Shown here: piece by piece, positions 29,004-29,145 of the stretch
Layout of the letters: each line of letters opens with the position of its first letter
Numbering within the stretch: the stretch's first letter is position 1
Source of the DNA: Escherichia coli
Lineage (GTDB): Bacteria; Pseudomonadota; Gammaproteobacteria; Enterobacterales; Enterobacteriaceae
Assembly (NCBI RefSeq): GCF_009931435.1
Contig: NZ_CP043414.1
Reading direction: 5' to 3' (one strand)
Length of the DNA: 64,000 bases
Made by a program: the position numbers and the translations under genes
The notes under the pieces: model-generated
Told to the model about the DNA's origin: nothing
Databases searched by the model: none
The model's input: only the letters and a program-made list of their open reading frames with translations

Positions 29004-29025
29004 ACATAATAGCGGGAACATGTCA

Positions 29026-29086
29026 GCCTGATAAGACGCGTCAGGCCGGATAAGACGCGGTAGGCCGGATAAGACGCGTCAGCGTC
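29026..29086. repeat. REP-like units (tandem ccggataagacgcg motifs)
   Basis: gcctgataagacgcgtcaggccggataagacgcggtaggccggataagacgcgtcagcgtc between ypfG and tktB. Confidence 0.7.
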
Positions 29087-29142
29087 GCATCCGGCAATCA
29101 GCATCCGGCAATCAGCATCCGGCAATCAGCATCCGGCGATCA
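29087..29142. repeat. 14-bp direct tandem repeat, four copies
   Basis: gcatccggcaatca x3 then gcatccggcgatca, ending 3 nt before the tktB stop codon. Confidence 0.85.
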
Positions 29143-29145
29143 CCA

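Follow-up and report, generated by a model that had tools for sequence, protein, structure and literature searches.

The spacer between the convergent genes ypfG (+ strand) and tktB (- strand) in an Escherichia coli genome carries three REP-like units followed by a 14-bp sequence repeated four times head-to-tail, all within 142 bp. This arrangement raises the question of whether the repeats represent a fixed variant of a REP element or an array whose copy number changes, and what such changes could mean for the 3′ end of tktB. We examined the spacer within a window of 64,000 nucleotides (contig NZ_CP043414.1, assembly GCF_009931435.1), to which all coordinates refer. The left edge of the spacer is the ypfG stop codon (TAA, 29001-29003, + strand) and the right edge is the tktB stop codon (TGA, 29146-29148, - strand). 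Both gene names agree with the RefSeq annotation at homologous loci of many genomes.

A REP with both arms repeated head-to-tail

The spacer contains one complete REP at 29060-29096 on the + strand, recognised by its GTAG, arms, loop and stem pairing. The GTAG (29060-29063) is followed on the same strand by the left arm GCCGGATAAGACGC (29064-29077), the loop GTCA (29078-29081) and the right arm GCGTCGCATCCGGC (29082-29095), and an A at 29096 ends the element. Direct pairing of the arms gave a stem of 12 bp around a central AA x GC mismatch, closed by the 4-nt loop, and the GTAG tetranucleotide lies immediately 5′ of GCCGGAT. When aligned with published elements, this core REP was identical to a y-type REP at 33 of 36 positions, and its foot was identical to that of the z2-type. 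A 5′ GTAG, an imperfect palindrome and a two-base mismatch in the stem are the hallmarks of E. coli REPs (Ton-Hoang et al. 2012, PMC3333891). The core belongs to this family by its 5′ GTAG, its imperfect palindrome of 30-40 nt with a 2-nt mismatch, its similarity to the consensus, and its extragenic and multicopy nature; related REP arms are found elsewhere in the window at 5784, 17692 and 42481-42650. The GTAG, the mismatched 12-bp stem and the 33/36 match to a y-type REP thus justify the description of these units as REP-like in the original prediction.

A REP consensus with a fixed 5-nt loop missed the core REP, because the loop at this position is 4 nt. Matches to the REP-derived Rfam family naRNA4 were also obtained, scoring 39 and 29 bits, below the gathering score of 59.5. 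These sub-threshold matches reflect similarity to REP and do not mark a distinct RNA gene.

Two arrays were detected in the spacer with Tandem Repeats Finder, one with a period of 19 bp (29022-29082, 3.3 copies, 86% matches, score 94) and one with a period of 14 bp (29087-29152, 4.7 copies, 92% matches, score 111). The 19-mer, of which the window has three copies, consists of the left arm and loop of the core REP. Unit 1, GTCAGCCTGATAAGACGC (29022-29039, + strand), is a degenerate copy of the loop and left arm of the REP, and its foot, CCTGAT, is y-type. Unit 2, GTCAGGCCGGATAAGACGCG (29040-29059, + strand), was found both by Tandem Repeats Finder and by a motif scan, and unit 3 is the left arm of the core REP itself (GCCGGATAAGACGC, 29064-29077, + strand). 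The 14-mer consists of the distal half of the right arm of the core REP together with 5 nt of flanking sequence; it is the opposite arm of the REP that yields the 'ccggataagacgcg' units. Four full 14-mers lie head-to-tail at 29087-29142 on the + strand, the first overlapping the core REP. Units 1-3 (29087-29100, 29101-29114 and 29115-29128, + strand) all read GCATCCGGCAATCA, and unit 4 (29129-29142, + strand) reads GCATCCGGCGATCA, with one A>G substitution. The sequence therefore reads as first described, as three REP-like units and four 14-bp repeats of which the last carries one substitution, and only the three nucleotides CCA lie between the end of the array and the tktB stop codon, as stated there. 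A degenerate fifth copy of the 14-mer, CCATCAGGCA (29143-29152, + strand), spans the tktB stop and last codons. The two arrays are thus one object, a REP in which each arm has been amplified head-to-tail.

In the 64-kb window the 14-mer was seen five times with at most one mismatch, against 0.06 occurrences expected, and a REP-arm 15-mer was seen seven times with at most two mismatches, against 0.16 expected. Counts so far above expectation exclude a chance origin of the repeats. Just one other tandem array was found in the 64 kb, a canonical BIME array at 42462-42648 with a period of 100, 1.9 copies and 95% matches, in which REPs alternate.

Copy number among strains

Copy number was compared across 5,426 complete E. 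coli genomes, the locus being found in 5,425. Synthetic queries composed of n units joined to a unique tktB anchor were run with megablast, with E-value limits set to pass full-length matches alone, and the matches listed covered 100% of the query. For at least five and at least six copies an 80-nt anchor was used, since a 24-nt anchor left no seed after low-complexity masking. At least two copies of the 14-mer were present in 4,452 genomes, at least three in 219, at least four in 102, at least five in 70 and at least six in 6. When the 5,425 genomes were divided into exact classes, 78% had two copies, 2.2% three, 0.6% four, 1.2% five and 0.1% six or seven, and the remaining 17.9% had one copy, a different element or divergent sequence. 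Arrays of four or more 14-mers, such as that in the window, are therefore rare, accounting for at most 2% of complete genomes. The exact allele of the window was found in none of the 5,426 genomes, the best full-length match being 14 bp shorter.

Individual alleles were also fetched, and are given here as (19-mer copies, 14-mer copies). The combinations (1,2), (1,3), (2,1), (2,2), (2,3), (2,4), (2,5), (2,6), (2,7), (3,2), (3,3) and (3,4) were all found, so that the fetched alleles range from one to three copies of the 19-mer and from one to seven copies of the 14-mer. K-12 and O157:H7 carry (2,2). Three or more 19-mers were present in 10 mainstream genomes, and the lineage to which the window belongs contributes at least 14 more. 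Among 65 classifiable metagenome loci, sampled independently, 29 had (2,2), 15 had (1,2), one had (2,3) and one had (2,5), and the other 19 carried a BoxC element, described below. REP alleles with a single 14-mer are rare (1 of 59 in a spread sample of complete genomes and none of the 65 metagenome loci). According to the original prediction, the repeats form an array prone to slipped-strand change, and identical copy number in all E. coli genomes would instead suggest a fixed REP variant. Copy number is clearly not identical in all strains, and its range across genomes (one to seven 14-mers, one to three 19-mers) upholds the variable array. With head-to-tail units and whole-unit differences between strains at one locus, the spacer is a VNTR.

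Two further spacers differed from this series. That of NZ_CP104112.1, whose YpfG and TktB proteins are those of K-12, has a 1-bp deletion within the second 14-mer, GCATCGGCAATCA, which reflects a true point indel or else a sequencing error. In that of NZ_CM183444.1 the tktB-proximal unit and its junction have diverged, with GCATCTGCCGGTCAGTA preceding the stop codon; this allele alters the 3 nt adjoining the stop and was missed by the anchored counts.

The window appears, from sequence identity, to come from a divergent Escherichia lineage and not from mainstream E. coli. Positions 17000-41000 are approximately 95.5% identical to typical E. coli, and the window reaches 98.3-98.8% identity with only about 18 of the RefSeq genomes that bear the name E. 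coli; its identity to Escherichia sp. E1V33 and E. whittamii is approximately 91%. Its closest relative over 24 kb is strain RMDEC465.

Comparison of flanking sequences showed how quickly copy number changes. Between the window and strain Z0117EC0005 there were no substitutions at 28946-31505, a span that includes the spacer and the whole of tktB, and the two differed there by one 14-bp unit; the flanks diverge by 1-2% over the surrounding 30 kb. The alleles (3,4), (2,5), (2,6) and (2,7) have flanks that differ by 0-1 SNP in 420 nt, and one TktB protein accession is common to all of them. Within the lineage of the window a single spacer haplotype bears (3,4), (3,3), (3,2) and (2,4), and the (3,4) state has originated independently on two haplotypes. 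The widest range of 14-mer copies, from four to seven, occurs on the haplotype with the longest arrays. Since copy number differs on otherwise identical flanking haplotypes, the changes must be recent and recurrent, and copy number outpaces point substitution in approximately 2.5 kb of flanking DNA. Among the genomes listed, spans were identical within K-12 derivatives, within O157:H7 and within the 0H15-0H26 genomes. This constancy in the sampled laboratory and outbreak clones indicates a rate far below that of classical contingency loci, and the ypfG-tktB array is not a high-frequency phase-variable tract.

The ypfG-tktB spacer is a hotspot for repeat elements in general. In about 15% of complete genomes (spread sample) and in 29% of the metagenome loci (19 of 65) the REP is replaced by CCCTCGCCCCTCTGGGGAGAGGGTTAGGGTGAGGGG, known as the BoxC or intrastrand-triplex element (PMC4666352). 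An example is CFT073, where the element is of the intrastrand-triplex type (TMECO 'A mm'). BoxC alleles keep the last 14-mer adjoining the tktB stop, and the degenerate fifth copy CCATCAGGCA is kept in all Escherichia alleles examined, including those that lack a REP. In every allele examined the last codons and stop of tktB form a REP-arm-like motif, CATCAGGCACC. The same BoxC allele is borne by Escherichia sp. E1V33, and its presence in a species only about 91% identical to the window suggests that the difference between BoxC and REP is an old, trans-specific polymorphism. The spacer of E. whittamii contains a true BIME, composed of an inverted REP, a linker and a REP. It also contains a 15-nt direct repeat, GCATCAGGCAAACCG and GCATCAGGCACC, of which the second copy includes the tktB stop codon. 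Species representatives were scanned with a degenerate pattern for the TktB C-terminus, which yielded two Escherichia loci but not E. coli itself, and the scan is accordingly not exhaustive.

In RMDEC465 (NZ_CM177019.1, 4798000-4802000) a copy of IS621, a member of the IS110 family, has entered the third 19-mer immediately past its GTAG, in a target that reads ATCCGGCCTAC. IS621 is known to target REPs (PMC11208160), and the insertion in RMDEC465 is a natural bridge-RNA-guided insertion into a REP.

Two low-coverage contigs from gut metagenomes joined the tktB-proximal half of the repeats to unrelated genes. In one, a HypF-like gene starts where the REP loop stops, and in the other a permease-like gene ends ahead of a BoxC allele. 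Both are probably chimeric assemblies formed via dispersed repeats, the alternative being real REP-mediated rearrangements.

Origin and resizing of the arrays

The reading that we consider likely is that a single REP had its arms tandemly duplicated and that the resulting arrays were resized by slippage, the REP acting as a 3′ hairpin and the variation being nearly neutral. On this account, duplication of the left arm and loop of a single REP in the convergent spacer would have produced the 19-bp array, and duplication of the distal right arm with 5 flanking nucleotides would have produced the 14-bp array that abuts the tktB stop. From two copies on, RecA-independent replication slippage could gain or lose whole units, and the hairpin formed by single-stranded REP DNA would probably assist misalignment of the direct repeats by bringing them together. 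The locus would thus act as two adjacent VNTRs that vary independently. The observed pattern is like that left by slippage: changes are in whole-unit steps and occur in both directions, the longest arrays are the most variable, and the two arrays are independent of one another. There was no obvious coupling of 19-mer and 14-mer copy numbers among the allele combinations observed, which argues against selection for balanced arms, and this candidate was disfavoured.

The alternative is that the arm duplications were made, and possibly also resized, by the REP-associated tyrosine transposase TnpA_REP (RAYT). Single-stranded DNA would be cut between C and T near a bound REP and the strands rejoined out of register, as has been proposed for BIME amplification. 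TnpA_REP cleaves at C/T (the slash marking the cleaved bond) in sites such as TGCC/TGAT and GGCC/TAC(A), and recombines such sites in vitro (PMC3333891). The core REP satisfies both requirements of the enzyme, the 5′ GTAG and the mismatch in the stem (PMC3333891). On the minus strand, moreover, the 19-mer units of mainstream strains are bounded by GGCC/TACA, a TnpA_REP-type site, the junction between 14-mers reads GATGC/TGATT, and the tktB end reads GGTGCC/TGATGG. However, CT recurs at each junction of any periodic sequence that contains CT, so that these sites are weak evidence. The position of the future junction in the one-copy allele, GGATGC/GACGC, is without C/T, and the 19-mers of the window's lineage bear GTCAG in place of GTAG and look like copies of loop and arm, not like cleavage products. 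Single-unit steps and greater variability of the longest arrays are also what slippage predicts. Because of the periodicity coincidence, the missing C/T in the one-copy allele and the occurrence of GTCAG instead of GTAG, we graded this model lower, and consider it unlikely.

The first duplication, from one copy to two, is explained cleanly neither by slippage nor by the TnpA_REP model. A GATG...GATG microhomology, with the two GATG sequences 14 nt apart in the one-copy allele, was considered as the source of the first 14-bp duplication and was rejected because the junction that it predicts differs from that observed at two bases. Bacterial VNTRs produced by slipped-strand mispairing include ones formed through microhomology-mediated tandem duplication (bioRxiv 10.64898/2026.02.28.708716).

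The tktB stop codon and known repeat systems

Secondary structure was predicted for both transcripts and for single-stranded DNA. The RNA in the tktB sense gave a fold of -63.3 kcal/mol (z = -3.9), the RNA in the ypfG sense gave z = -4.2, and single-stranded DNA gave -28.7 kcal/mol (z = -3.6). Each took the form of a nested ladder, and the predicted folds had a low frequency in the ensemble (0.02-0.03). The REP-derived hairpin was the innermost helix in all predicted folds and is the sole strong structure between ypfG and tktB, no intrinsic terminator being predicted within the spacer. In RNA, additional units of the two arms would pair around the core hairpin to give a longer, interrupted 3′ stem-loop, which would be common to the two convergent transcripts. 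REPs act as 3′-end structures that protect transcripts. By analogy, the REP-derived structure at this locus probably impedes 3′-5′ exonucleases and so protects the 3′ ends, and the variation in copy number itself is most likely nearly neutral.

The distance from the core hairpin to the tktB stop codon is 8 + 14(R-1) nt, where R is the number of 14-mers. This amounts to 8 nt for a single copy, 22 nt for K-12 and 50 nt for the window, each 14-mer shifting the core hairpin 14 nt away from the stop and changing the predicted structures. In geometrical terms, then, the original suggestion that a change of copy number could alter the tktB 3′ UTR holds. In the proximal 14-mer, stem-forming bases begin 8 nt past the tktB stop (the first arm-like unit is at +9), and composite helices between extra units are predicted to reach the stop codon where partner units exist. 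As the work of Liang, Rudd and Deutscher (2015) is reported in PMC12306157, a REP lowers translation only if the stop codon is less than 16 nt away. Compared with that attenuator, in which the REP is at most 15 nt from the stop, REP-derived stem sequence at tktB starts at 8 nt, but the complete hairpin is more distant, at 50 nt for the window and 22 nt for K-12, and only predicted composite helices between extra units fall within 15 nt.

It is conceivable, in view of these distances, that the copy numbers are selected functional settings that tune ribosome stalling, mRNA stability and the level of TktB, the stationary-phase transketolase. The closeness of the proximal stem bases to the stop and the dependence of the core distance on R would fit such a role, as would the predicted fold energies, which vary across alleles from -34 to -70 kcal/mol with allele-dependent pairing of the stop-codon region. 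Against it, the one-copy REP alleles, in which alone the core hairpin is no more than 15 nt from the stop, are rare, the 19-mer and 14-mer arrays vary independently, some 15-29% of strains have BoxC in place of the REP, and copy number is constant within sampled clones. We therefore regard selected settings as very unlikely. A more specific proposal, that the arm arrays serve as a heritable and reversible 'spacer ruler' for the formation of a helix close to the tktB stop (approximately 15 nt), seems to us highly improbable; if true, REP-dependent stalling and 3′-end protection would set lineage-specific levels of TktB.

The notion of a fixed REP variant, or of an assembly or sequencing artefact without true copy-number variation, has next to no likelihood and is refuted by the fetched alleles, the metagenome sample and the population counts: although short tandem repeats can mis-assemble, and the single-base deletion in NZ_CP104112.1 may be a sequencing error, alleles differ in length by exact multiples of 14 or 19 bp, the variants are seen in complete genomes that many laboratories produced and also in metagenome assemblies independent of these, the longest 14-mer array fetched (98 bp) is shorter than typical reads, and the counts are reproducible over hundreds of genomes.

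The ypfG-tktB locus is thus a REP turned into a compound VNTR, and is neither a BIME nor a contingency locus. Its core shares with REPs and BIMEs the GTAG, the mismatched palindrome, the extragenic site past a stop codon and the many genomic copies, and strains of E. coli are likewise known to differ in the number of BIME copies per locus (Ton-Hoang et al. 2012, PMC3333891). In a BIME, however, the whole REP is repeated with inverted REPs and linkers, whereas here there is a single complete REP, in the window and in all E. coli alleles, and the repeated units are direct copies of one arm. With the bacterial VNTRs used in MLVA the locus shares short head-to-tail units, whole-unit changes on identical flanking haplotypes, stability within clones and greater variation on longer arrays. 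It differs from them in that its two adjacent arrays are complementary to one another, being derived from the arms of one palindrome. The likeness to contingency loci lies in a gene-adjacent tract whose length would mutate by slippage, but this tract lies past the stop codons of both genes, outside promoter and reading frame, has units of 14 and 19 nt, is constant in the sampled clones and implies no on/off phenotype. What we observe is most likely an ordinary slipped-strand length polymorphism of a known type, and an effect on tktB is only conceivable. BIME variation and slippage VNTRs have long been known; the peculiar feature of this locus is that one REP has supplied its two arms as the repeat units.

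Other patterns described as REP-like units with a tandem repeat may be readable in the same way, as one REP with amplified arms. With at least 12 length alleles that are stable within clones, the spacer could make a compact marker, of PCR size, for strain typing. The one to seven 14-mers, one to three 19-mers, BoxC alleles, IS621 insertion and sister-species BIME also form a natural allele series. It could be used to test the influence of hairpin-to-stop distance on translation and mRNA decay, and the dependence, if any, of sub-REP duplication on the RAYT transposase.

In NC_000913.3, the K-12 RefSeq record, no repeat feature is annotated at this spacer, and a literature search for a ypfG/tktB tandem repeat or for the unit sequence found no paper describing the locus. 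The sole match to the unit sequence was a REP at another locus that had been mis-listed as CRISPR. A sigma-70-like match (TTATCA-17-TATTAT, 29006-29034, minus strand), which is a pattern match only, sits in the distal 19-mer unit and is directed antisense into ypfG.
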